A stretch of DNA of 23,155 nt from UHGV virus genome UHGV-0138245; one strand, 5' to 3'. The translations under genes were made by a program, and so were the position numbers. This document shows, one piece after another, positions 7,447-23,103 of this stretch (the stretch's first letter is position 1; every line of letters begins with the position of its first letter). The notes under the pieces are model-generated. The model made no database searches and had not been told where the DNA came from. It was given only the letters and a program-made list of their open reading frames with translations. The stretch is from a virus.

Positions 7447-8505
7447 TTACGCTCCGGCTTCTGCTGCGGCGGCGCTGAAATCGCCAATCTGGATGTTTTC
7501 CACCAGCGCAGCGCAGCGGTAGTCCTCAACCACATAGGCTTCGTTAACAGATTCAAAGTTTTCAATCCGGTCACGTTTCGGGTTGTCGATAACTGAACGG
7601 CGGCGGGTGTCTTCCTGCCAGTAGATGGACAGGTTATCCAGACGGGTGATCAGCAGCGCATTCGGCGGGAAGAACGGCGCACGCACGGCCTGCAGACCGC
7701 CCATGCGTTTCTGACTGATAATCATATCGGCTGCCAGTTTTTCACTGTTTTCCTGCTCTTTGTTGACCAGCGGGAAATACTTGTCAGACAGCAGTTCACG
7801 ACCGCAAATCACCACCAGATCGTCATCATCCTGGTAGACCACGTCGATAAGCTCATTGACCGCATCCATCACTACAGCGTCCAGGTTGGCATATTCGCCA
7901 CCTTTCCCGACTTTCACCGCACCCGGTGTGGTTTCGCCGCCCGTGGTGGTGCTGCCCATGACGTGATCCGGTGCATCCTCACGGATTTTCTGCAGCCAGC
8001 CTTTGTTCACATCCTGCAGCAGCGGGTTTTCACTACGGTTGGAGGTTTTCGCACGCTTCACGCCGTTAAAGCCGATCATGATGCGGTCCAGTGCCTGACG
8101 TTTCACGATGGCGTCACGGATACGCACCTGGAAATCCTGAAACTTCGCCCACAGGTCCAGCTTCGCGTAGGTCAGCACCGTGTCAAAGTTGGTCTGCTCG
8201 CATTTATATTCCACATCGACCATCAGCGTCGGATCGACAGGTTCACGCTCTTTCGCGGTGGTGTCAGTGGTTCCGGCAATGGTGCTGCCAACACCCAGCC
8301 CCAGCAACTGACCGGACTGCTCAGTCACTGGCGTGACGTTAATCAGCGTCAGGAAGGCGGCGGACTGCTGGATCTGGTCTTCCAGCGTCTGCTGCACAGA
8401 CGGCTCCACAGTGAATTTGCTGGACAGTTCTTCAACTGCCACACCGTTCAGACGCGCCAGCTGCTGCAGGTAAGCGTTAAAAGCAAAGCGGGTATTCTTC
8501 TTCAT
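7447..8505 (-). CDS. Major capsid protein (P2 gpN-like)
   Basis: 352-aa ORF MKKNTRFAFNAYLQQLARLNGVAVEELSSKFTVEPSVQQTLEDQIQQS..., a pattern close to P2 gpN. Confidence 0.9.
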   Translation of the reverse strand: MKKNTRFAFNAYLQQLARLNGVAVEELSSKFTVEPSVQQTLEDQIQQSAAFLTLINVTPVTEQSGQLLGLGVGSTIAGTTDTTAKEREPVDPTLMVDVEYKCEQTNFDTVLTYAKLDLWAKFQDFQVRIRDAIVKRQALDRIMIGFNGVKRAKTSNRSENPLLQDVNKGWLQKIREDAPDHVMGSTTTGGETTPGAVKVGKGGEYANLDAVVMDAVNELIDVVYQDDDDLVVICGRELLSDKYFPLVNKEQENSEKLAADMIISQKRMGGLQAVRAPFFPPNALLITRLDNLSIYWQEDTRRRSVIDNPKRDRIENFESVNEAYVVEDYRCAALVENIQIGDFSAAAAEAGA

Positions 8506-8521: not shown

Positions 8522-9355
8522 TCAGCAATTGGTCAGAGTGTCAGCGGGGGCGTTACCGCCTGTTGCACGCTGGCGGTAGTCCTGGCGGCTGTCTTCATGA
8601 CTCAGCTTGTCCACCAGTTCGTTAAAGGCGGTCTGCTGTGCCTGCAGGGCAGTCTCCAGCTCAGACAGGCGTTCTTCCTGCTCAGACAGGGATTTTTCGG
8701 TGCGTGCGCTCAGGTTCTGCTGCTCAGTGGCGACCAGCTCCACGGCCTTATGCACATCAGAGAACCGGGCGTCATCGGACTGCTCTTTTTTGGTAAACAG
8801 CGCCGTGACGCGGGCAAACAGGGACGGTTTGTCGTCCTGGACTTCTTCCAGTTCGATCACCGTTTCCTCTGCAGCGGTAAAAAGATTGGCGGGATTCTGC
8901 TTGCGGTTTGCCAGCGGGTTATGGGCTGCACTGGCGCTGAATGTCAGCATTTCCGTACCCAGACTGGCGGGATCATCAGTGGCAGCCAGGCCGACCAGAT
9001 AGGCTTTGCCCGTATCAGCGAACTTCGGGCTGACTTCCATAGAGGTGAATAATTTCTGGCCTTTTTTCACCAGTTCCACCAGGGACTCCGTTGGCTCAAC
9101 GTCGGCATACAGCGCCATCTTGCCTGCCAGCGGACCTTCCGTGATTTCTTCAGCAAACAGCGCCGTCACCTTGCCGTAGCGGTTAAAGGTGCTGTCCGGC
9201 AGATAAGACTTGATGTGCTCAAGGTTAATCAGCGCGGTATACACCGCCGGGTTGTAGCTGGCTGCCATCTGTTCCAGCCATTCACGCTGGATTTCGCGTC
9301 CGTCGGTGGTGGCACCTTCCACCCCGATGCGAAAACGCTTTGCTTTCACTGTCAT
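8522..9355 (-). CDS. Capsid scaffold protein (P2 gpO-like)
   Basis: 277-aa ORF, first gene of the leftward late operon, divergent from the terminase; Shine-Dalgarno GGAGCA upstream. Confidence 0.85.
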   Translation of the reverse strand: MTVKAKRFRIGVEGATTDGREIQREWLEQMAASYNPAVYTALINLEHIKSYLPDSTFNRYGKVTALFAEEITEGPLAGKMALYADVEPTESLVELVKKGQKLFTSMEVSPKFADTGKAYLVGLAATDDPASLGTEMLTFSASAAHNPLANRKQNPANLFTAAEETVIELEEVQDDKPSLFARVTALFTKKEQSDDARFSDVHKAVELVATEQQNLSARTEKSLSEQEERLSELETALQAQQTAFNELVDKLSHEDSRQDYRQRATGGNAPADTLTNC

Positions 9356-9497: not shown

Positions 9498-11264
9498 ATG
9501 AACACCACACTGACACCCGCAGATCTCGATCCCCGTCGGCAGGCCATGCTGCTGTACTTTCAGGGATACCGCGTCGCCCGCATTGCTGAAATGCTGGGCG
9601 AGAAAGTTGCAACCGTTCACAGCTGGAAAAAACGCGACAAGTGGGGTGACTATGGGCCGCTGGATCAGATGCAGCTCACCACCGCCGCACGCTACTGCCA
9701 GCTCATTATGAAGGAGCACAAAGAAGGGAAAGATTTCAAAGAGATTGACCTGCTGGCGCGCCAGTCGGAGCGCCACGCGCGGATCGGCAAGTTTAACAAT
9801 GGCGGCAACGAAGCCGACTTAAACCCTAACGTCGCCAACCGCAACAAAGGCCCACGCCGTCAGCCGGAAAAGAATGTTTTCACCGATGAGCAGATTGAGA
9901 AGCTGGAAGAAATCTTCCATTCCTCCATGTTCAACTACCAGCGCCACTGGTGGGAAGCCGGAAAAACCAACCGCATCCGCAACCTGCTGAAGTCACGCCA
10001 GATCGGCGCGACCTTTTACTTTGCCCGTGAAGCCCTGATTGACGCTCTGCTTACCGGACGTAACCAGATTTTCCTTTCTGCCAGTAAGGCACAGGCCCAC
10101 GTCTTCAAACAGTACATCATCGACTTTGCCAAAGAAGTGGAGGTGGAGCTGAAAGGCGATCCGATGGTGCTTCCCAACGGGGCCACACTGTATTTCCTCG
10201 GAACCAATGCCCGCACGGCCCAGAGTTACCACGGCAACCTGTATCTGGATGAATATTTCTGGATACCGAAATTCCAGGAGCTGCGCAAAGTGGCTTCCGG
10301 TATGGCTATTCACAAAAAATGGCGACAAACCTATTTTTCCACGCCATCCAGCCTGACCCACAGTGCTTATCCGTTCTGGTCCGGTGCGCTGTTCAACCGT
10401 GGACGCAACAAAGCTGACAAGGTGGACATCGACCTGTCCCACAGCAATCTGGCCCCCGGCCTGCTGTGCGCAGACGGGCAATACCGCCAGATAGTCACCG
10501 TGGAAGATGCGGTGCGCGGCGGCTGTAACCTGTTCGACCTCGACCAGCTACGCATGGAGTACAGCCCGGACGAATACCAGAACCTGCTGATGTGCGAGTT
10601 CGTGGACGATCTCGCGTCCGTGTTCCCGCTCAGCGAACTGCAGGCGTGCATGGTGGACAGTTGGGAAGTCTGGACCGACTTTCATGCACTGGCCCTGCGC
10701 CCGTTTGGCTGGCGCGAGGTGTGGATCGGTTATGACCCGGCAAAAGGTACGCAGAACGGCGACAGCGCCGGATGCGTGGTGGTGGCACCGCCAGCCGTGC
10801 CAGGCGGTAAGTTTCGCATTCTTGAGCGTCACCAGTGGCGCGGGATGGACTTCCGCGCCCAGGCGGACGCCATCAAAAAACTGACCGAACAGTACAACGT
10901 GACCTATATCGGCATCGACTCGACAGGTGTCGGTCACGGGGTTTACGAGAACGTGAAAGCGTTTTTTCCAGCCGTCCGGGAGTTTGTCTACAACCCCAAC
11001 GTTAAAAACGCCCTGGTACTCAAGGCCTACGACATTATCAGCCACCGCCGTCTGGAGTTTGACGCCGGACACACCGACATAGCGCAGTCATTTATGGCAA
11101 TCCGTCGCGCCACCACCGCCAGCGGCAACCGCCCGACCTATGAAGCCAGCCGCAGCGAAGAAGCCAGCCACGCCGATCTGGCCTGGGCAACGATGCACGC
11201 TCTGTTTAACGAACCGCTGCAGGGCGAGTCCGCCAATACAAGCAATATTGTGGAGATTTTTTGA
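9498..11264 (+). CDS. Terminase large (ATPase/nuclease) subunit (P2 gpP-like)
   Basis: 588-aa ORF with the P2-type terminase ATPase core (KSRQIGATFYFAREALIDALLTGRNQIFL, LYLDEYFWIP, YFSTPS) and a C-terminal nuclease region. Confidence 0.9.
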   Translation: MNTTLTPADLDPRRQAMLLYFQGYRVARIAEMLGEKVATVHSWKKRDKWGDYGPLDQMQLTTAARYCQLIMKEHKEGKDFKEIDLLARQSERHARIGKFNNGGNEADLNPNVANRNKGPRRQPEKNVFTDEQIEKLEEIFHSSMFNYQRHWWEAGKTNRIRNLLKSRQIGATFYFAREALIDALLTGRNQIFLSASKAQAHVFKQYIIDFAKEVEVELKGDPMVLPNGATLYFLGTNARTAQSYHGNLYLDEYFWIPKFQELRKVASGMAIHKKWRQTYFSTPSSLTHSAYPFWSGALFNRGRNKADKVDIDLSHSNLAPGLLCADGQYRQIVTVEDAVRGGCNLFDLDQLRMEYSPDEYQNLLMCEFVDDLASVFPLSELQACMVDSWEVWTDFHALALRPFGWREVWIGYDPAKGTQNGDSAGCVVVAPPAVPGGKFRILERHQWRGMDFRAQADAIKKLTEQYNVTYIGIDSTGVGHGVYENVKAFFPAVREFVYNPNVKNALVLKAYDIISHRRLEFDAGHTDIAQSFMAIRRATTASGNRPTYEASRSEEASHADLAWATMHALFNEPLQGESANTSNIVEIF

Positions 11265-11971
11265 TGCCCCCAATCCCAACTAACCTCATGACTATCGCGG
11301 GACTTCCGGTGGATAGCTCTTTCTTTGCTTACCAGTATGAGTGGAACACTGGCCCAAAGAGTAGAAACCGTGTACTCACAAAAATGCGCCAGGCAGGCGC
11401 GGATTTCTTTTTTTCCTATGAAGCCCTGAACGATGCACTGCATACCGGGCGTAACCAGATTTTCCTCTGCTGCAGCACAGCATCTGCGCAGGCAATCAAA
11501 GCCTATGTGTCAGCATTCTTAAGCCAGGCCGCAGCTTATACGCACACTGGAAAAATAAAATCAGGCAAAAGTCATCTGGAGCTTCCGAATGGTGCGGTCA
11601 TTTATTTTTTCGACCTCAAGTGCCACGCCACCGCACTCAGTGGAAATGTCTACGTGTCAGAGTATGCCTGGTCTGAATCACCGAGAAATATGATTGCCCT
11701 GGCTAAAGGGATTTCTATGCACGCACGCCACCACGCCACCTACTACACCACTCCCAGCCCTAACCCGGAGGCATGGCAGGAATTTAAAAAGTTAAGCAAA
11801 AACAACAGTGTAACCAGCATGGTGTTTACCGCTGATGACGCAGCAGCATCAGGAGCAATGTTGTTTACTGATAACTGGCTGAACGATATGAAAAAAGAAT
11901 TATCAGCAGAGGACTGGAAAATGCTGTTTATGTGCGAATGGCCTCTCGCAAACGAGGAGCTGGCAGAATGA
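11264..11971 (+). CDS. Terminase-ATPase-domain paralog (truncated terminase-like protein, function unknown)
   Basis: 235-aa ORF whose ATG overlaps the P stop (TGATG) and whose stop overlaps the Q start (ATGA). It aligns to the central ATPase core of the adjacent terminase (HTGRNQIFLCCS, ELPNGAVIYF, VYVSEYAW, YYTTPS, MLFMCEW) but lacks the N-terminal ~130 aa and the nuclease domain. Confidence 0.75.
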   Translation: MPPIPTNLMTIAGLPVDSSFFAYQYEWNTGPKSRNRVLTKMRQAGADFFFSYEALNDALHTGRNQIFLCCSTASAQAIKAYVSAFLSQAAAYTHTGKIKSGKSHLELPNGAVIYFFDLKCHATALSGNVYVSEYAWSESPRNMIALAKGISMHARHHATYYTTPSPNPEAWQEFKKLSKNNSVTSMVFTADDAAASGAMLFTDNWLNDMKKELSAEDWKMLFMCEWPLANEELAE

Positions 11972-13017
11972 GCAAACGTAAAAACACCAAGCAGGTAACA
12001 GTTGATCACAACACAAAACCAGGCAACAGCCCAACGGCTGAGGCTTTCAGCTTTGGTGATCCCATTCCTGTACTGGACCGCCGCGAGCTGCTGGACTATG
12101 TGGAATGCGTACAAATGGATCGCTGGTATGAGCCGCCCGTCAGCTTTGACGGACTGGCGCGTACCTTCCGCGCCGCCGTGCACCACAGCTCCCCGATCAG
12201 TGTTAAGCGTGACATTATCAGCAGTACCTATATTCCACATCGCCTTCTCAGCCAGCAGGCATTTACCCGTTTTGTGCAGGACTATCTGGTTTTTGGTAAC
12301 GCCTACCTGGAGAAGCGCACGAACCGTTTCGGTGAAGTTATTTCGCTGGAGCCTGCACTGGCAAAATACACCCGGCGCGGGCTTGACCTTGAAACATACT
12401 GGTTTGTGCAATACAGCCTGACAACACAGCCGTATCAGTTCACAAAAGGTAACGTCTTCCACCTGATGGAGCCGGATATCAACCAGGAGATTTATGGTCT
12501 GCCGGGTTACCTTTCTGCCATTCCGTCAGCTCTGCTCAACGAGTCCGCCACGTTGTTCCGTCGTAAGTATTACATTAACGGCAGCCATGCAGGCTTCATC
12601 ATGTACATGACCGACGCCGCGCAGAACCAGGAGGATGTGAACAACATCCGCAAGGCAATGAAAAGTGCTAAAGGACCCGGCAACTTTCGCAACCTGTTTA
12701 TGTACTCGCCTAACGGCAAAAAAGATGGCATTCAGATTATCCCGTTGTCGGAAGTTGCGGCGAAGGATGAATTTCTGAACATCAAGAACGTCAGCCGCGA
12801 TGACATGATGGCGGCTCATCGCGTACCACCACAAATGATGGGCATCATTCCCAACAACACTGGCGGCTTTGGTGATGTGGAAAAAGCGAGCCGTGTCTTC
12901 GTTCGCAATGAACTGATGCCACTGCAAAAGCGACTGCAGGAGCTGAACGACTGGCTGGGTGAAGAAGTGATCCGTTTCGAAGCCTATGACTTAGGACTTA
13001 AGGGCAAACGAGGCTGA
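11968..13017 (+). CDS. Portal protein (P2 gpQ-like)
   Basis: Track ORF 11932..13017; the ATG at 11968 (MSKRKNTKQ...) gives 349 aa, close to P2 gpQ, and lies downstream of the terminase as in the P2 P-Q operon. Confidence 0.9.
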   Translation: MSKRKNTKQVTVDHNTKPGNSPTAEAFSFGDPIPVLDRRELLDYVECVQMDRWYEPPVSFDGLARTFRAAVHHSSPISVKRDIISSTYIPHRLLSQQAFTRFVQDYLVFGNAYLEKRTNRFGEVISLEPALAKYTRRGLDLETYWFVQYSLTTQPYQFTKGNVFHLMEPDINQEIYGLPGYLSAIPSALLNESATLFRRKYYINGSHAGFIMYMTDAAQNQEDVNNIRKAMKSAKGPGNFRNLFMYSPNGKKDGIQIIPLSEVAAKDEFLNIKNVSRDDMMAAHRVPPQMMGIIPNNTGGFGDVEKASRVFVRNELMPLQKRLQELNDWLGEEVIRFEAYDLGLKGKRG

Positions 13018-13054
13018 CATACTCATAACATCAATAACTGACCAACTCTCACAA

Positions 13055-13088
13055 CGCCTCAGCAGCATTCTGCGGGGCGTTTCTTTTT
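13055..13088 (+). terminator. Intrinsic terminator after the portal gene
   Basis: GC-rich hairpin CGCCTCAGCAG/CTGCGGGGCG (one bulge) followed by TTTCTTTTT. Confidence 0.55.
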
Positions 13089-13177
13089 GCCCTTACATCT
13101 CTCCCCCAACACCAAATGAGGCCGCCAGCGGGCCAAAGGCTGCGCCGGATTTTAGCCATTTCCCCCCGTTGCGCGCG

Positions 13178-13196
13178 CTCGTATCCCCGCCACGCC
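13178..13196 (-). other. Candidate cos (cohesive-end) site
   Basis: Reverse strand reads GGCGTGGCGGGGA..., matching the first 13 nt of the P2/186 19-nt cos as I remember it, about 160 bp past the portal stop (P2 cos is about 140 bp past Q). The cos sequence is recalled, not looked up. Confidence 0.4.
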
Positions 13197-13239
13197 TGCA
13201 CGCTTTATGTAGTGGTTTTCATGCACCTGCATGATCTAC

Positions 13240-13265
13240 GCAAAAGCCCGCCAGTTCTGGCGGGC
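13240..13265 (-). terminator. Intrinsic terminator downstream of the SOS operon
   Basis: Perfect 9-bp stem GCCCGCCAG/CTGGCGGGC followed on the - strand by a short T-run (TTTTG). Confidence 0.5.
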
Positions 13266-13400
13266 CTTAGCAAAAACGATCCTCAAACGATCATGCGATC
13301 TCATGCGGCATAGACATGCACTACAGAGCTAACGCCTCGCAAGGGCTCGTTGTTCAACCTTGCTGACGCCAGAAACAAGTTCAGACGCCAGCAACGTTTC

Positions 13401-13634
13401 TTAATGCAGCCAGCTGTCGTCTTCCCACACCTTCTGCATAATTTTCATCACTTGTTTTCTTTCTTCGTCCAGTTGCAGTCCGGTCAGTTCCACACCGTTA
13501 GAGCTACCTTTGCGGATACGAATTACCGTTTTGGGATACAGGGGGCGCAGATTGCGGTAAAGCTCGGATTCAAGGGCGTCCAGTGTAGACTGGCTAATCT
13601 TCTGCTCTTTATCGATCATTATTTCAATGCGCAT
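13401..13634 (-). CDS. dinI: DinI-family protein
   Basis: Internal ATG with AGGTGA Shine-Dalgarno; MRIEIMIDKEQKIS...LDALESELYRNLRPLYP...KQVMKIMQKVWEDDSW parallels E. coli DinI (MRIEVTIAK...WESADDW). Confidence 0.75.
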   Translation of the reverse strand: MRIEIMIDKEQKISQSTLDALESELYRNLRPLYPKTVIRIRKGSSNGVELTGLQLDEERKQVMKIMQKVWEDDSWLH

Positions 13635-13644
13635 AAAAGTCACC

Positions 13645-13833
13645 TCAGCTGATGACATCCATTGAGCGGTTGTATTCGTGGGTTCTGATTTTTGCCATGA
13701 GTTCATCTGTCAGTTCAGAAACCCACTGCAGGGCCAGCCCCTTCTCTTCATCACTACACTCACTAGCCGCTACAAGCTTAAGAAAAAAATCAATGCGCTG
13801 GAGCTTCAAAGACTCCAAAAAATAGTCCTGCAT
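13645..13833 (-). CDS. Small SOS-operon protein (possible Tum-like antirepressor N-terminal module)
   Basis: 62-aa ORF with GGAGGAAAG Shine-Dalgarno, directly downstream of a LexA box and overlapping the extended DinI frame. Function inferred from position only. Confidence 0.45.
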   Translation of the reverse strand: MQDYFLESLKLQRIDFFLKLVAASECSDEEKGLALQWVSELTDELMAKIRTHEYNRSMDVIS

Positions 13834-13873
13834 CTTTCCTCCTATGACACCAAAGCAATACTGTATACATAAC

Positions 13874-13893
13874 CACTGTTTATATTTACAGTA
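13874..13893 (-). promoter_or_regulatory. LexA (SOS) box and promoter for the small-ORF/DinI operon
   Basis: CACTGTTTATATTTACAGTA fits CTGT-N8-ACAG; a second half-site (TACTGTATACAT) lies at 13859..13870, just upstream of the operon RBS. Confidence 0.7.
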
Positions 13894-13985
13894 TATAATA
13901 ATCTTACTGATGTAAAACGTTTTTTTACGCTCATCAGCCTGATATGCCTGGTATTATTAAGAGCACGAATTGTTAACCCGCGTAA

Positions 13986-16400
13986 TTAATACAGGTTTCG
14001 CCACTTATCATCTTCCTGCAAACGCTGGTTCCGATAGAAGATACGCAGGCCTGCTCCTGACGGAATACTGCCACCGCGAAGGAGTAAATCTACCTCTTTC
14101 TCGCTGCCATCAAATCCTCTGGACTTCAGTTCATAGACGAGCTGCTGTCGTTGATGGTCTGTAATTCGCTGTTTGTAGTTTCTACGCCGTTTCGGTTTCA
14201 CCAGGCGTAACCTTGCAGCCAGTTCCCGGCGCTCTTTTTTGTTCATACTGTGCAGAAAATCGTGCAACTCCTTGTCATCCATGCGGGTAACATCCGTTCT
14301 GGTGTCCCCATCAGCTGATTTATCTTTCTCCTGTTGGTTCAAATTTTCAGCAAGGGGACAGTTATTGCCACGAGTCCAAGGGGCGCAAGCGCCCTGGTCG
14401 GCTGCCGCCTCCTGAACGTCAACGGCCTTACGAACCATTTTCCACTTCACTGCATGAGTACAGATCTTGCCCTCTGCAATGGGTGACCAGATGCCATAAA
14501 TACGAATGCCGTGATCGCCATAGGCGGTCGGCTCTTCGTTGATTTCATAAGCGGTTCTGATCAGGTGATATTTGCGGGGAACCAGTACGCCGCCCTGCTT
14601 CATGATGTAGGTGGCAAAACAACCAGCATCAGCAGCAGCCAGGATTGCATCAAGGCGCGGGTTATCCAGTACCGGCGCACCTGCTTTTTTGTCCCCCTGT
14701 TGCCTTGCCGCCTGACCAGCCAGCAATCGCAGTTCACGGTAAGCCTGACGCCCCGGAATGCCAAAGAAGCGGAATTGCTGAACACGATGCAGAGACGCCC
14801 AGGCATTAACGTATTCAGCATTATCACGCAGGGATTTCCCCGTTTCCTTGCTGATCTCGCCAGCCAGACCACGCCCGTCAATGTTCTTACTGATGTATTT
14901 CGCGATGTAGCTTGTTGGCGTACCTTTGCGCGGGTTAATCAACTCAGACTTAAAGCGCGGCCCAGTGTTATTGCCCAGCTCCTCGCGGTCTTCACGGATG
15001 GCAAACTTACGCAGTAATGCAGTGATGGCGCGGCGGTCTTTTTTGCGCATAAAACACAACAGGTGCCAGTGAACTGTACCGTCATGATGCGGCTCAGCCA
15101 CCCGCACGCCATACCAGCGCAATCCGGCTTTGTGCATCGCCTTACGAAATGCAGCAAACATGCCGACCAGGTAATCACTACTTTGTCTTACCGTCGCATT
15201 TGTCCAGGTTGGGTTGGGCCTGCCGTTATTTAGCGTGGAATGGAAACGTGACGGACAGGTGATGGTGTAGAAAACGGCGCAGTCACCGCGCATTTCCGCG
15301 ATAAGCTCCAGACCTTTAACACAGGCCATCATCTCATTGCGGCGATGCGCAGGGTTGCTGCTGCTGGCGTTTACCACATCCTCCATGTCCAGCGTGTCGC
15401 CGTCTTCGTTCACCAGTTCATGAGAACGGAAAAACTCCAGCGACTTACGGCGCTGCTCACGTTTATGCATCACGGCTTCATAGCTGACATAAGGAGATGC
15501 TTTTTTGCTGACCAGGCAGACAGCGCGCAACTGCTCTTCCCGCCATTCGCAACGCATCTTCCATAATTTCCGGTACCACCAGTCGGCGCACAACATACGC
15601 GCCAGCGAACCCGGAATGAGTTCATAGGGCACGGGTTTACGGCGGTTTCTTTTCCGACGGAGTTGCTCAAACGCAGGCGGGATAACATCCAGACGCAGGG
15701 TTTCCGCTGCCACCTTTTCCCATGTCTTGCGGATTTCTTCTGGCTTAACGTCATCGGTGGCATACAAATCACCACAAGCTGCATCAAGGCACATGCTCAT
15801 ATGCGCAGCGACAAGGGTAGACAGGCGCTTCACCTGATCCTGACTCATTTCAGGCAGGATAAGCAGGCCATCCAGCCCTTCATGGCTTGCCATAAAGCGA
15901 AAAGAAGCGGATAGCTGACTGTCGCGTACATGCTCCAGTCGTTCCAGACATGGCTTAATCGTCTCACGCAAATAGCGGGAATAAGCCTTTGGCCTGCCCA
16001 GGCTGCTGAAGTATTCAATACGTTGCATCAGCGGCTTGCTGATATGGGAAGGCTGGGCATTGACGTCCGCCAGAATGACCATATCTGGATTAAAACGCTG
16101 CTGCTCATGCGCCAGCTTTGCCCGACTAATGAGCTTATCCTGCTCCATTTCGCGCTGGACAGGATCACGGGATTCATTAAAGAAATAACGCTCCCAGACC
16201 TGATCACTCAGTACCTCGCGGCGCAGGTGTTCCTGCTCGTTATCGGCAGCGTACAGAGCGATCAGGTTTGAAAGCGTAGAAACCGGCGCAACTTCCGCCG
16301 GGTCCAGATAAGGGTTAATGGCCTTTTTCGGGCTGTTCCATGAGAACGATGCGGCAGCTTCGTTAAAGCCGCAGCAGTTGTTCATATCGGCATGACTCAT
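13986..16400 (-). CDS. A: Replication initiation protein (P2/186 gpA-like rolling-circle endonuclease)
   Basis: 804-aa ORF with HUH-type motif ([10 protein letters not shown]) and a paired-tyrosine motif (YIAKYISKN); start overlaps the dam stop (ATGA). Confidence 0.85.
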
Positions 16401-19828: not shown

Positions 19829-20845
19829 ATGACCATCAGAAAACAGCCGAACGGAAAATGGTTGTGTGAGTGCTATCCCAATGGACGCAATGGTAAGCGC
19901 GTGCGTAAGCAATTTGCTACCAAAGGCGAAGCCATTGCATTTGAAAGCTTCACCATGGACGAAGTAAACAAAAAGCCATGGCTTGGTGAGAAGGAAGATC
20001 GGCGGCGATTATCAGAAGTGATTGAGCAGTGGTATTCCCTATATGGTCAAACACTCGCAGACCCCAAACGCCTGATGGCGAAACTTAGAATTATCTGTAA
20101 TGGTCTAGGCGATCCCATCGCCTCTGAGCTGACAGCAGGTGATTTCACAAAATATCGGGAAGCCAGATTAAAGGGGGAGGTCCAAAATGAAGACGGCTCG
20201 TTCATGTCACCCGTTAAACCTCGCACAGTTAATCTTGAGCAGCGTAACCTGTCATCGGTGTTCGGTACATTGAAAAAACTAGGGCACTGGTCCGCACCAA
20301 ACCCGCTGGCAGGGCTTCCAACCTTCAAAATTGCTGAAGGTGAATTGGCTTTTCTTTCCACGGACGAAATCAAACGCCTGCTTAATGCCTGCGCCGAATC
20401 TCAAAACACCAGCCTACTAATGATTGCAAAAATATGCCTGGCTACTGGTGCGCGATGGAGTGAAGCAGAAAACTTGCAGGGCCATCAGTTATCAAAATAC
20501 CGGATCACCTATACCAAGACAAAAGGTAAGAAAAATCGTACCGTGCCGATATCTCAAAATCTGTATGATGAACTCCCCAAGAACAGAGGGAAACTATTCA
20601 CACCGTGCAGAAAAGCCTTTGAACGAGCAGTAAAGCGAGCAGGCATCGAGCTACCAGAGGGCCAATGCACCCACGTGCTGCGTCATACATTCGCCAGTCA
20701 TTTTATGATGAATGGCGGGAATATTCTTGTCCTTAAAGAAATATTGGGCCATGCCGATATAAAAATGACGATGGTTTACGCACACTTTTCTCCAGACCAT
20801 CTAGAAGATGCTGTTACAAAAAATCCTTTACATAATTTGGTTTAA
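19829..20845 (+). CDS. int: Tyrosine integrase (P2/186 Int family)
   Basis: 338-aa ORF with the catalytic signature (ATGARWSE; HVLRHTFAS H-x-x-R; MVYAHF catalytic Tyr). Confidence 0.9.
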   Translation: MTIRKQPNGKWLCECYPNGRNGKRVRKQFATKGEAIAFESFTMDEVNKKPWLGEKEDRRRLSEVIEQWYSLYGQTLADPKRLMAKLRIICNGLGDPIASELTAGDFTKYREARLKGEVQNEDGSFMSPVKPRTVNLEQRNLSSVFGTLKKLGHWSAPNPLAGLPTFKIAEGELAFLSTDEIKRLLNACAESQNTSLLMIAKICLATGARWSEAENLQGHQLSKYRITYTKTKGKKNRTVPISQNLYDELPKNRGKLFTPCRKAFERAVKRAGIELPEGQCTHVLRHTFASHFMMNGGNILVLKEILGHADIKMTMVYAHFSPDHLEDAVTKNPLHNLV

Positions 20846-20849
20846 TAGA

Positions 20850-21908
20850 ATGAAAAAAAAGCTCACATTAATCATTACCTACGCAATCATTACTATCTTA
20901 ATTGCCTTAGCATTGATATACACTAATCGTCCAAGAGTTTTTATCTTCTTTAGTGTAGCTTATATACTTGGATTGATACTTATGTTCTATTGCTTCAATT
21001 GGCTTAAACTAAATGAGAAAAATCTATTAAAACAACCATTATTCATAGCATCTATTATCGTACCGTTAAAAATGTTTGTTTTGTATGGCCTCTGGGCTTG
21101 GAAAGGCCACAATTTAAATTTCACATCAGACGGTTTTAATCACTTTCTTGACATCTCTAAATTGCCATTATTTATTTTAGCTTCTTCGGTACCTCTTGCA
21201 GCAATCGTCAACAATATACATAGAACCACACAAACAGAGAACCAAATAGAAAAAACACAAAAGCAAATCAATCTTGTTATTGAAAAAAACACCACTGATT
21301 CATATTACTCACATCTGAAAAGCTTCGCTGATATATTCCAAACACTACCAACATTTAAATTATCAAGATTAAATAAAGAAACTAGTGATATAGACAGTAT
21401 TGAACTATCTGTAGTTCATCCGTACACTCTTTATAAAAATATTTTCAAATCATCTTCCATTGATAATGGCTATAGCACCGCTGTCGAAGAAGATTTTATT
21501 CGAAAAACAACAAATCATTATAACAACATAAACAAATCGCTTAAGTCCAACAACAAAAATCATGACAACCAATTAGTTAGCCTACAACTCATAGAATCAA
21601 ACATAATTCAACTTTGCAGACTACTTGGAATTGATTATAAATACCAAGAACATCTTTTCTCAATAATTCCTGAACATCCAAAACCAGATACGGAAGCCAT
21701 AAGCATCTCATTCAATGATGAAAAACAACTAAAGCAAATGCTTTGGGGACTAAGAAATATTCTCATTGAGTTATATGTTTTAATCGACAAGGACCCCTCT
21801 ATCTTCCAAACAGGTAAAAGCAATGGTGATTACATACCTGAGTACGCACTATATGACGAAAAACTCTTTACAAGCATTTTACCTATATCAAATGACCAGC
21901 GCATTTAA
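20850..21908 (+). CDS. AT-rich membrane protein of unknown function (cargo gene between int and att)
   Basis: Real start MKKKLTLIITY... 5 nt after the int stop; four predicted N-terminal transmembrane helices then a ~230-aa Lys/Asn-rich soluble domain; ~28% GC against ~45-55% for its neighbours. Confidence 0.7.
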   Translation: MKKKLTLIITYAIITILIALALIYTNRPRVFIFFSVAYILGLILMFYCFNWLKLNEKNLLKQPLFIASIIVPLKMFVLYGLWAWKGHNLNFTSDGFNHFLDISKLPLFILASSVPLAAIVNNIHRTTQTENQIEKTQKQINLVIEKNTTDSYYSHLKSFADIFQTLPTFKLSRLNKETSDIDSIELSVVHPYTLYKNIFKSSSIDNGYSTAVEEDFIRKTTNHYNNINKSLKSNNKNHDNQLVSLQLIESNIIQLCRLLGIDYKYQEHLFSIIPEHPKPDTEAISISFNDEKQLKQMLWGLRNILIELYVLIDKDPSIFQTGKSNGDYIPEYALYDEKLFTSILPISNDQRI

Positions 21909-22146: not shown

Positions 22147-22269
22147 TGCCCTCAATTTGTCCCGCGAAGTCCGAAGAGAACTGATTAAATCCGAACCTTT
22201 TAGGCCCATTGATAGGCCCAACGAAAAGCTCTATTGTTTTCGTTGGGCCTAAACGCATGGAGACTCCCC

Positions 22270-23103
22270 ATGGCAAGAAAAACCAAGCCGTTAACCGATA
22301 CGGAAATCAAAGCCGCCAAACCTAAAGATGCCGATTACCAGCTGTATGATGGTGACGGGCTTACTCTGTTAATCAAGTCCAGCGGTAGTAAGCTCTGGCA
22401 GTTCCGTTACTATCGACCTCTGACCAAGCAGCGAACCAAGCAGAGCTTCGGAGCCTACCCAGCCGTCTCCCTTTCTGATGCGCGTAAACTCAGAGCTGAA
22501 TCTCGAGTTTTGTTGGCAAAAGATATTGATCCTCAGGAACACCAGAAAGAACAGGTGAGGAATTCTCAAGAGGCCAAAACCAACACCTTCTTGTTAGTTG
22601 CCGAGCGTTGGTGGAATGTGAAGAAAGCCAGCGTAACAGAGGACTATGCCGACGATATCTGGCGCTCGCTTGAGAGAGATGTTTTCCCAGCAATCGGTGA
22701 TATCAGCGTCACTGAGATTAAGGCTCATACTCTAGTTAAAGCTGTTCAGCCGGTACAGGCCAGAGGTGCATTAGAGACTGTTCGCCGCCTTTGTCAGCGT
22801 ATTAACGAAGTCATGATTTATGCGCAGAACACAGGCCTGATTGATGCAGTTCCCAGTGTAAATATCGGAAAAGCGTTCGAGAAACCGCAAAAGAAAAACA
22901 TGCCGAGTATCCGTCCGGATCAGCTTCCACAGTTAATGCAAACAATGCGTACAGCAAGTATCAGTATGTCAACGCGGTGCTTGTTCATGTGGCAGCTTCT
23001 CACCATTACCCGCCCTGCCGAAGCCGCTGAGGCACGATGGGATGAAATCGATTTCAGTGCTAAAGAATGGAAAATTCCAGCAGCTCGTATGAAGATGAAC
23101 TGA
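22270..23103 (+). CDS. intA: P4/CP4-57-type tyrosine integrase (IntA-like), C-terminally truncated; probable pseudogene
   Basis: MARKTKPLTDTEIKAAKPKDADYQLYDGDGLTLLIKSSGSKLWQFRYY... N-terminus about 200 bp after the ssrA end. The ORF stops after ...IPAARMKMN (278 aa), before the H-x-x-R and catalytic Tyr motifs. Confidence 0.75.
   Translation: MARKTKPLTDTEIKAAKPKDADYQLYDGDGLTLLIKSSGSKLWQFRYYRPLTKQRTKQSFGAYPAVSLSDARKLRAESRVLLAKDIDPQEHQKEQVRNSQEAKTNTFLLVAERWWNVKKASVTEDYADDIWRSLERDVFPAIGDISVTEIKAHTLVKAVQPVQARGALETVRRLCQRINEVMIYAQNTGLIDAVPSVNIGKAFEKPQKKNMPSIRPDQLPQLMQTMRTASISMSTRCLFMWQLLTITRPAEAAEARWDEIDFSAKEWKIPAARMKMN

Follow-up and report, generated by a model that had tools for sequence, protein, structure and literature searches.

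The closest described relatives of the gene considered here belong to an annotated, functionally uncharacterized protein family of P2/186-like phages. Coliphage 186 carries a coding sequence (CDS) of 248 amino acids (aa) between the genes for its large terminase (TerL) and its portal protein (positions 1215 to 1961; AAC34147/NP_052250), which is labeled "W protein; similar to Orf12" in U32222/NC_001317 and "terminase large subunit" in RefSeq. PSP3 gp2 is annotated as "similar to 186 W; similar to orf3," phages EtG, Midge, SW9, SI22, and BIS20 carry copies of the 186 W/PSP3 gp2 kind (91 to 96% identical), and Yersinia phages vB_YenM_201.16 and 56.17 carry a 254-aa version annotated as a second "terminase large subunit." In UHGV virus genome UHGV-0138245 (a stretch of 23,155 nucleotides [nt], referred to in its entirety as the window), a 235-aa open reading frame (ORF; 11264 to 11971, plus strand) occupies the identical position, between the large terminase gene P (9498 to 11264, plus strand; 588 aa; homolog of P2 gpP and 186 Orf12) and the portal gene Q (11968 to 13017, plus strand; 349 aa; homolog of P2 gpQ and 186 Orf2). 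This ORF is a functional gene, and its product, a separate copy of only the ATPase (Terminase_6N) domain from the large terminase of the P2 family, is referred to here as the ATPase-only paralog. It is a diverged member (of the "swapped" subfamily) of the 186 W/PSP3 gp2 family, in which the 186 and PSP3 proteins were annotated first; the new points concern a locus that does not vary, a gene that is optional and yet under selection, and a coupled exchange in the Walker A and Walker B motifs.

The initial annotation, which was made from the sequence alone, knew of no such gene in P2 or 186; it is indeed absent from P2, but 186 carries it. It had also considered that P2-family genomes might routinely carry a gene of known function at this position; we found the gene annotated in a minority of these genomes, and it has no known function. 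Close relatives (up to 92% aa identity) are named "terminase large subunit domain-containing protein" in RefSeq/NCBI, one is named "Putative W protein (Enterobacteria phage 186)" in UniRef, and phage MLG42 carries a 241-aa version of the window's type. We found no published description of this gene in the literature that was checked (including the Yersinia phage paper, the Eganvirus paper, two P2-hotspot papers, and a P2 diversity survey), which did not include the original 186 W papers.

The ORF begins with an ATG at 11264, ends with a TGA at 11969 to 11971, and overlaps both neighbors in the way that had been described initially. The A of its ATG doubles as the final base of the P stop codon (TGATG, 11262 to 11266; a 1-base overlap), and its own stop shares four bases with the start of Q (ATGA, 11968 to 11971). 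At the junction between P and the paralog gene (11252 to 11266, plus strand), a GGAG Shine-Dalgarno sequence (11252 to 11255) sits 8 nt upstream of the ATG (11264 to 11266) and is followed by the P stop (TGA, 11262 to 11264). At the junction between the paralog gene and the portal gene (11954 to 11971, plus strand), the GAGGAG Shine-Dalgarno sequence (11954 to 11959) that serves the Q start codon (11968 to 11970) lies inside the 3' end of the paralog gene. No sigma-70-like site or promoter of its own was detected upstream of the ORF, and we therefore rejected a dedicated promoter, which would have allowed expression in the lysogen. The paralogs always lie between the TerL and portal genes, with translational coupling on either side, and are therefore expressed late, from the P-Q operon. 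The G+C content of the gene is 48.6% (53% at third codon positions), compared with 56.9% for P (70.8% at third codon positions) and 51.8% for Q; thus, the initial statement that it lies below that of the flanking genes was correct, while the value given for it (about 45%) was not.

In a BLASTP comparison with the window P protein, residues 18 to 226 of the paralog aligned with residues 142 to 368 of P (76 of 237 positions identical, 32%; E = 5e-32), and the motif pairs quoted in the initial annotation all fall within this alignment. In Pfam, the paralog matched Terminase_6N alone (E = 9.5e-17; 61.8 bits against a cutoff of 22; profile positions 6 to 200 of 215), with neither Terminase_5 nor Terminase_6C, while the window P carries all three domains (i.e., the Terminase_5 helix-turn-helix, the Terminase_6N ATPase, and the Terminase_6C nuclease). 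The paralog alignment begins at gpP residue 142 and the gpP-type N-terminal helix-turn-helix (HTH) is absent; at the other end, the protein stops at the hinge (approximately gpP residue 370) and the RNaseH-like nuclease domain is absent. These results bear out the proposal that the ORF represents the ATPase core of the terminase alone, in diverged form. PHROG profile 3746 also matched the paralog (E = 1.4e-86), and there was no NCBIfam match and no PADLOC match at an E value of ≤0.01.

An AlphaFold2 model of the paralog built on 45 family members (predicted local distance difference test score, 80.8) agrees with this assignment. The best Foldseek matches were the solved ATPase domains of TerL proteins from P74-26, D6E, T4 (gp17), HK97, and Sf6 (TM-scores [TMq] of 0.58 to 0.68; E = 1e-6 to 1e-4). 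Viral terminases in BFVD were matched as well. A sequence search of the PDB with the family profile returned nothing significant; only the fold search gave matches.

The members of the family share a fixed genomic position. A profile search of 1.84 billion representatives retrieved dozens of 50%-identity clusters of ATPase-only proteins (218 to 257 aa) that match from their first residues, and these stood beside terminases of ~590 aa found in the same search. Each of the 35 additional loci examined has a terminase gene (~588 aa), then the paralog gene, then the portal gene (~345 aa), with neighbors that overlap or abut, and the same order with overlaps is present in 186, PSP3, and YenM_201.16. 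The hosts of named members are Escherichia, Salmonella, Citrobacter, Klebsiella, Leclercia, Pantoea, Phytobacter, Atlantibacter, Buttiauxella, Yersinia, and Serratia, and those of a second clade are Xenorhabdus, Proteus, and Providencia; all the named hosts are Enterobacterales. A neighbor-joining tree separated the paralogs from the full-length TerLs with a bootstrap value of 48/100. A single origin of the ATPase-only paralogs is plausible and weakly supported; it is argued for by the shared domain boundaries and by a gap of ~8 residues relative to TerL (near VDIDLSHS) that is common to all four paralogs aligned.

Compared with its described relatives, the window paralog shares the locus and architecture and differs in its motifs. 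The 186 W/PSP3 gp2 proteins likewise lie between P and Q homologs with the same overlapping stops and starts, and they likewise consist of the ATPase core only (TerL residue ~125 to the hinge at ~375). The 186 ORF product shares 37% identity with the 186 terminase and, in BLASTP, 32% with the window paralog (E = 1e-35). Unlike the window paralog, which has KMRQAGAD and VYVSEY and no hairpin, the 186 type keeps KSRQIGAT, VYLDEF, and a hairpin of ~23 aa with the signature CxDGxWRQ. The YenM_201.16/56.17 protein has the same locus and architecture and intermediate motifs (KSRQIGAD and VYLGEY), while it is only 36 to 38% identical to the window paralog and keeps the hairpin. The hairpin is thus deleted in the window's subfamily and kept in the 186 and Yersinia types.

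The paralog is under purifying selection, yet its protein evolves several-fold faster than those of its neighbors. Across 12 genome pairs, the ratio of nonsynonymous to synonymous substitution rates (dN/dS) was 0.16 to 0.48 for the paralog (~0.2 at informative divergence), compared with 0.00 to 0.08 for TerL and 0.045 to 0.093 for the portal. Its length stays between 218 and 257 aa, with the frame intact, across lineages that are only 34 to 40% identical.

Sequence comparisons indicate that the gene is nevertheless optional in nature and is not essential for phage production. Q comes immediately after P, without an insert, in Cartapus, Fels-2, many Klebsiella phages, and P2. In insert-free relatives whose flanks are ~90% identical to those of the window, the sequence up to the TGATG is the same, and the ATG that starts the paralog in the window there starts Q. 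Seven IMG/VR contigs encode a TerL that is 100% identical to the window's with the portal gene directly next to it, and among 5,426 complete E. coli genomes, the window TerL type was present in 1,220 and the paralog in only 21. Two phages without the gene form plaques, i.e., Cartapus and Yersinia phage MDG94-186; in the latter, TerL is identical to that of 186 at 582 of 589 positions and P leads straight to the portal gene.

The alleles are also exchanged. Relative to contig L013, the window TerL is 99% identical (synonymous divergence [dS], 0.25), while the paralog is 75% identical (dS, 0.80). The exchanged cassette appears to include the 5' end of the portal gene, since the first ~20 portal codons are wholly different between the window (11968 to 12030) and Cartapus (L005, 2765 to 2830), the only pair compared in this way. 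This region corresponds to an N-terminal segment of P2 gpQ that the gpO protease removes. Decaying copies exist as well, i.e., a frameshifted one in 500465-1 (L001, 4001 to 4531), a 90-aa remnant with an internal deletion in L024 (4001 to 4273), and the truncated clusters P0016, P0035, and P0038. The portal of 500465-1 is annotated as two CDSs (906 and 132 nt).

The motifs of the nucleotide site have all been retained. In the window paralog, the adenine-recognition (Q) motif is represented by Gln24 (11333 to 11335, plus strand), which is invariant in both the paralog family and the TerLs; a deviant Walker A motif spans Lys40 to Asp47 (KMRQAGAD; 11381 to 11404, plus strand), with the Lys, Arg, and Gly invariant and the TerL Thr replaced by Asp; the Walker B region spans Gly127 to Trp136 (GNVYVSEYAW; 11642 to 11671, plus strand), with the TerL Asp replaced by Ser132 and the catalytic Glu133 invariant; and the C (coupling) motif is Thr162 to Ser165 (TTPS; STPS in TerL; 11747 to 11758, plus strand). 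The window P has the canonical motifs (KSRQIGAT and LYLDEY). In an alignment of 45 family members, 29 columns are invariant and are concentrated in the ATPase motifs; they include Gln24, Lys40/Arg42/Gly45/Ala46/Asp47, Gly62/Arg63/Gln65, Glu133, Thr159, Ser165, and Trp226, and Ser132 is nearly invariant. Other residues that are invariant in TerL are variable in the paralogs (Ser194/Ala195/Ser196/Gln199, Gly220, Thr236/Asn237/Gln242, His288, and Asp326/Arg330 in TerL numbering). The sites lost include the SAS..Q segment after strand 2, the Thr/Asn/Gln residues before Walker B, His288, and Asp326/Arg330. This pattern suggests that the nucleotide pocket has been retained and that the work surfaces specific to the terminase have been released. 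The isoelectric points of the paralogs range from 5.9 to 9.0 without a pattern, and we dropped charge as a clue to a loss of DNA binding.

The initial annotation had recognized the change of the Walker B Asp to Ser (VYVSEY versus LYLDEY), and it had missed the matching change in Walker A (KSRQIGAT to KMRQAGAD). The two go together. By our tally from motif tables, the full-length TerLs in which both motifs were readable nearly all close the P-loop with Thr or Ser, and in every one of them Asp precedes the catalytic Glu. Approximately 21 paralog lineages have Asp at the P-loop Thr position (Glu in L038), and in all of them the Walker B Asp is replaced by Ser, Gly, Pro, Ala, or Thr. The Thr/Asp pair of TerL thus becomes Asp/Ser, Asp/Gly, Asp/Pro, Asp/Ala, or Glu/Thr (in the window, at 11402 to 11404 and 11657 to 11659); in the same tables, no paralog lineage has both acids, and no full-length TerL with both motifs readable shows the paired exchange. 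A few paralogs combine a Ser or Thr in Walker A with a residue other than Asp in Walker B, and both motifs are entirely canonical in the 186 type and in a few other paralogs. In P-loop enzymes, the Walker A hydroxyl binds Mg directly, and the Walker B Asp binds it through water and that hydroxyl. On the basis of this chemistry, the acid seems to have been relocated by the paired exchange in a way that retains the metal site, which speaks against simple inactivation. The initial description of the protein as possibly hydrolysis impaired was therefore too quick, since the catalytic Glu, the Q motif, the P-loop Lys and Arg, and the C motif are invariant and the loss of the Walker B Asp is paired with a Walker A acid.

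We tentatively favor a reading, to which we assign somewhat less than even probability, in which the paralog is a late, ATP-binding accessory subunit that modulates how the packaging machine of its own phage assembles or fires. The protein probably still binds ATP-Mg, because the residues of the pocket are all kept and, in most lineages, the Mg-ligand positions have been exchanged as a pair. It would have no means of finding cos, because the HTH/small-subunit end is missing, and without the nuclease domain it could neither cut DNA nor contribute a second domain for translocation. Given these absences and the loss of residues invariant in TerL, it is probably not itself a motor. It may instead act through protein contact, either in mixed assemblies with gpP via ATPase-ATPase interfaces or by docking at the portal; such binding to gpP or to the portal is purely our inference. 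The consequence would be a tuning of terminase/motor assembly or firing that is of benefit under some conditions without being essential.

The paralog can be compared with three kinds of known ATPase. gpP shares with the paralog a homologous ATPase domain, the Q motif, a deviant lambda-like P-loop (K.RQ.G..), the catalytic Glu, and the C motif; the paralog differs from it in the missing HTH/small-subunit end and nuclease domain, the lost TerL-invariant residues, the exchanged Mg-ligand positions, and its dispensability in nature. ATPase-only packaging enzymes of the phi29 gp16 type are the sole, essential motors of phages that need no DNA cutting. Like the paralog, phi29 gp16 has an additional-strand, conserved-glutamate (ASCE) packaging-ATPase fold without a nuclease domain, a likeness of function class only, and the fold matches of the paralog include 5hd9 and 7jq7; unlike gp16, the paralog is optional and coexists with a complete terminase. 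The delta' subunit of the clamp loader is an inactive or regulatory paralogous subunit of a ring ATPase, i.e., a copy of a working ATPase with an altered active site, and the paralog could similarly act by joining an assembly. This is an analogy only, and the paralog differs from delta' in that its catalytic Glu is retained and its assembly with gpP is conjectural.

Several points weigh against a packaging accessory. A translocating ring that takes up a subunit with nothing but the ATPase domain might well be poisoned rather than helped by it. The natural dispensability of the gene, its ~3- to 10-fold-faster protein evolution, its lower G+C content, and its allele exchange fit an arms-race gene equally well. 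We also considered specific coevolution with the portal and rejected it: the partial correlation was suggestive, but comparisons with quarters of the neighboring genes showed that, toward TerL and toward the portal alike, the correlation of distances merely falls off as physical distance grows, a sign of linkage and not of specific coadaptation. W is a classical head-gene complementation group of 186, and the name "W protein" would fit a packaging role, but the label is ambiguous and also covers the portal: /gene=W in the 186 record spans both the ATPase-only ORF ("W protein") and the portal CDS ("Orf2"), and recent Eganvirus records (L101, 3900 to 4946, compared with 196 to 1961 in 186, L099) and the authors of MDG94-186 apply "W gene" to the portal. 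Since MDG94-186 lacks the paralog and /gene=W also spans the portal CDS, the label cannot serve as proof of essentiality, and amber mutations in the 186 ORF could act by polarity on the portal.

Two other functional readings, a decoy for host immunity and a weapon against competitors, fit the accessory, fast-evolving, and exchangeable character of the gene about as well as a packaging role, and they fit less well with the deep catalytic conservation, the canonical motifs of the 186 type, and the absence of TerL coadaptation. The first, which we regard as rather unlikely, is that the paralog presents a terminase-ATPase-like surface that titrates or misengages TerL sensors of the host or of prophages (i.e., STAND NTPases of the Avs1 to Avs3 type) and thereby blunts abortive infection. 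The fold of the protein is that of the TerL ATPase, and its structural matches include the PhiV-1 terminase in complex with Avs3 (8dgc_E); its patchy presence, its evolution at a higher rate than its neighbors, the cassette-like exchange of alleles with a lower G+C content, and late coexpression with the target would all fit such a decoy. Sensors of this type are abundant in P2-like prophages and their hosts (PMC9122126, PMC13581612). However, the paralog matches no anti-defense family and no PADLOC family, and its buried catalytic residues are invariant across proteins that are 30 to 40% identical, which is beyond what a surface mimic needs. In addition, an ATPase-only fragment might trigger Avs rather than inhibit it, and our literature search found no published account of such a decoy.

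The second, which is quite unlikely in our assessment, is that the paralog acts as a dominant-negative subunit that poisons the terminase rings of coinfecting or coinduced P2-like phages, or that disturbs the packaging of P4-like satellites, which borrow the terminase of their helper, while the cognate terminase would be adapted to tolerate it. A lost Walker B Asp in an otherwise kept site is the classical recipe for an ATP trap, and rapid evolution with exchanged alleles would suit a weapon. The named hosts of the paralogs are all Enterobacterales, which is also the range of P4-like satellites. The 186-type members, however, keep fully canonical Walker A and Walker B motifs, so trapping cannot be the mechanism across the family. 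Highly dissimilar alleles are found next to TerLs that are almost the same, and the gene can be present or absent beside identical TerLs, with no sign that TerL has adapted to a poison; expression only late in the producer's cycle would also restrict encounters with rivals.

It is very unlikely that the gene is a nonfunctional remnant from a tandem duplication of part of the terminase gene that persists because coupling to the portal was preserved. The decaying copies and the dispensability of the gene in nature are what a leftover would produce, but dN/dS is ~0.2 in every comparison, the frame is intact at 218 to 257 aa in lineages that are 34 to 40% identical, and the 29 invariant columns centered on the ATPase motifs, together with the paired Walker A/B change, point to active constraint. 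The selection ratio and the conserved length led us to reject the pseudogene reading. A fusion of P to the paralog by a -1 slip at a run of six T residues (ATT TTT TGA to ..TTT TTG ATG), giving a terminase with a second ATPase domain, can be dismissed as highly improbable for want of specific support: the -1 frame at the run is indeed the frame of the paralog ORF (open from the TTG at 11261), but the same T run and TGATG junction precede Q in phages without the insert, P ends differently in 186 and P2, and the paralog has its own Shine-Dalgarno sequence and ATG. The run itself (ATTTTTTGATG, 11256 to 11266) lies at the P stop, where a -1 slip would continue from P into the paralog frame; it is probably just a coupling site, because it also occurs at the P-Q junction of Cartapus.

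The window as a whole is a prophage of the P2/186 type (Peduoviridae), and it runs in the reverse direction relative to the standard map. Its regulatory genes are of the 186 type, and its P protein is 63% identical to the 186 TerL. The capsid gene N (7447 to 8505, minus strand) and the scaffold gene O (8522 to 9355, minus strand) precede P. Portal gene Q is followed by a cos-like site, a DinI/Tum-like gene, the replication gene A (13986 to 16400, minus strand), a Dam methylase gene, the CII and CI regulator genes, and the integrase gene. The cos-like sequence (GGCGTGGCGGGGATACGA; 13179 to 13196, minus strand) lies ~160 nt beyond the portal stop and has three mismatches to the P2/186 cos core.

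The interval between Q and A (13017 to 13986), a "defense hotspot," is almost empty in the window phage and contains only the DinI/Tum-like gene (13401 to 13706, minus strand) and a 62-aa ORF (13645 to 13833, minus strand). Prophages with the paralog carry varied defense-type cargo right after the portal gene (i.e., an AAA ATPase, TIR-domain proteins, and DarT with a macro domain); such cargo lies 3' of the portal gene in L088 (4786 to 6708), L089 (4773 to 6115), L090 (5490 to 6708), and L001 (6797 to 7225), and no partner gene is common to the post-portal cargo of these four loci. At the far end of the window, a 366-aa ORF (20808 to 21908, plus strand) with a G+C content of 31 to 33% overlaps the end of the prophage integrase gene (19829 to 20845); it has no Pfam or PADLOC match. 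A second integrase gene, of the P4 type (Arm-DNA-bind_3; 22234 to 23103), follows it and runs beyond the window edge. The 366-aa ORF could be cargo of an integrase-att hotspot or the start of a neighboring island or satellite.

These results also correct the annotation: genes that are routinely labeled as a second "terminase large subunit" are not large terminase subunits. Terminase motors are model ring ATPases, and the family provides a natural experiment in which a coexpressed ATPase-only paralog is present or absent beside identical terminases. It also supplies a paired exchange of both Mg-ligand positions in a P-loop site. Depending on which reading holds, the paralogs may represent an unrecognized regulatory layer in P2/186-type packaging, look-alikes directed against terminase-sensing immunity, or look-alikes directed against competitors and satellites. 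The more specific proposal, that they are ATPases, active or gated by ATP, whose metal site has been rewired and that form mixed assemblies with the large terminase or, alternatively, terminase mimics that disarm terminase-sensing immunity, is doubtful at present. If such mixed assemblies form, no earlier viral motor for DNA packaging would have had a paralogous regulatory subunit that is both dedicated and optional.

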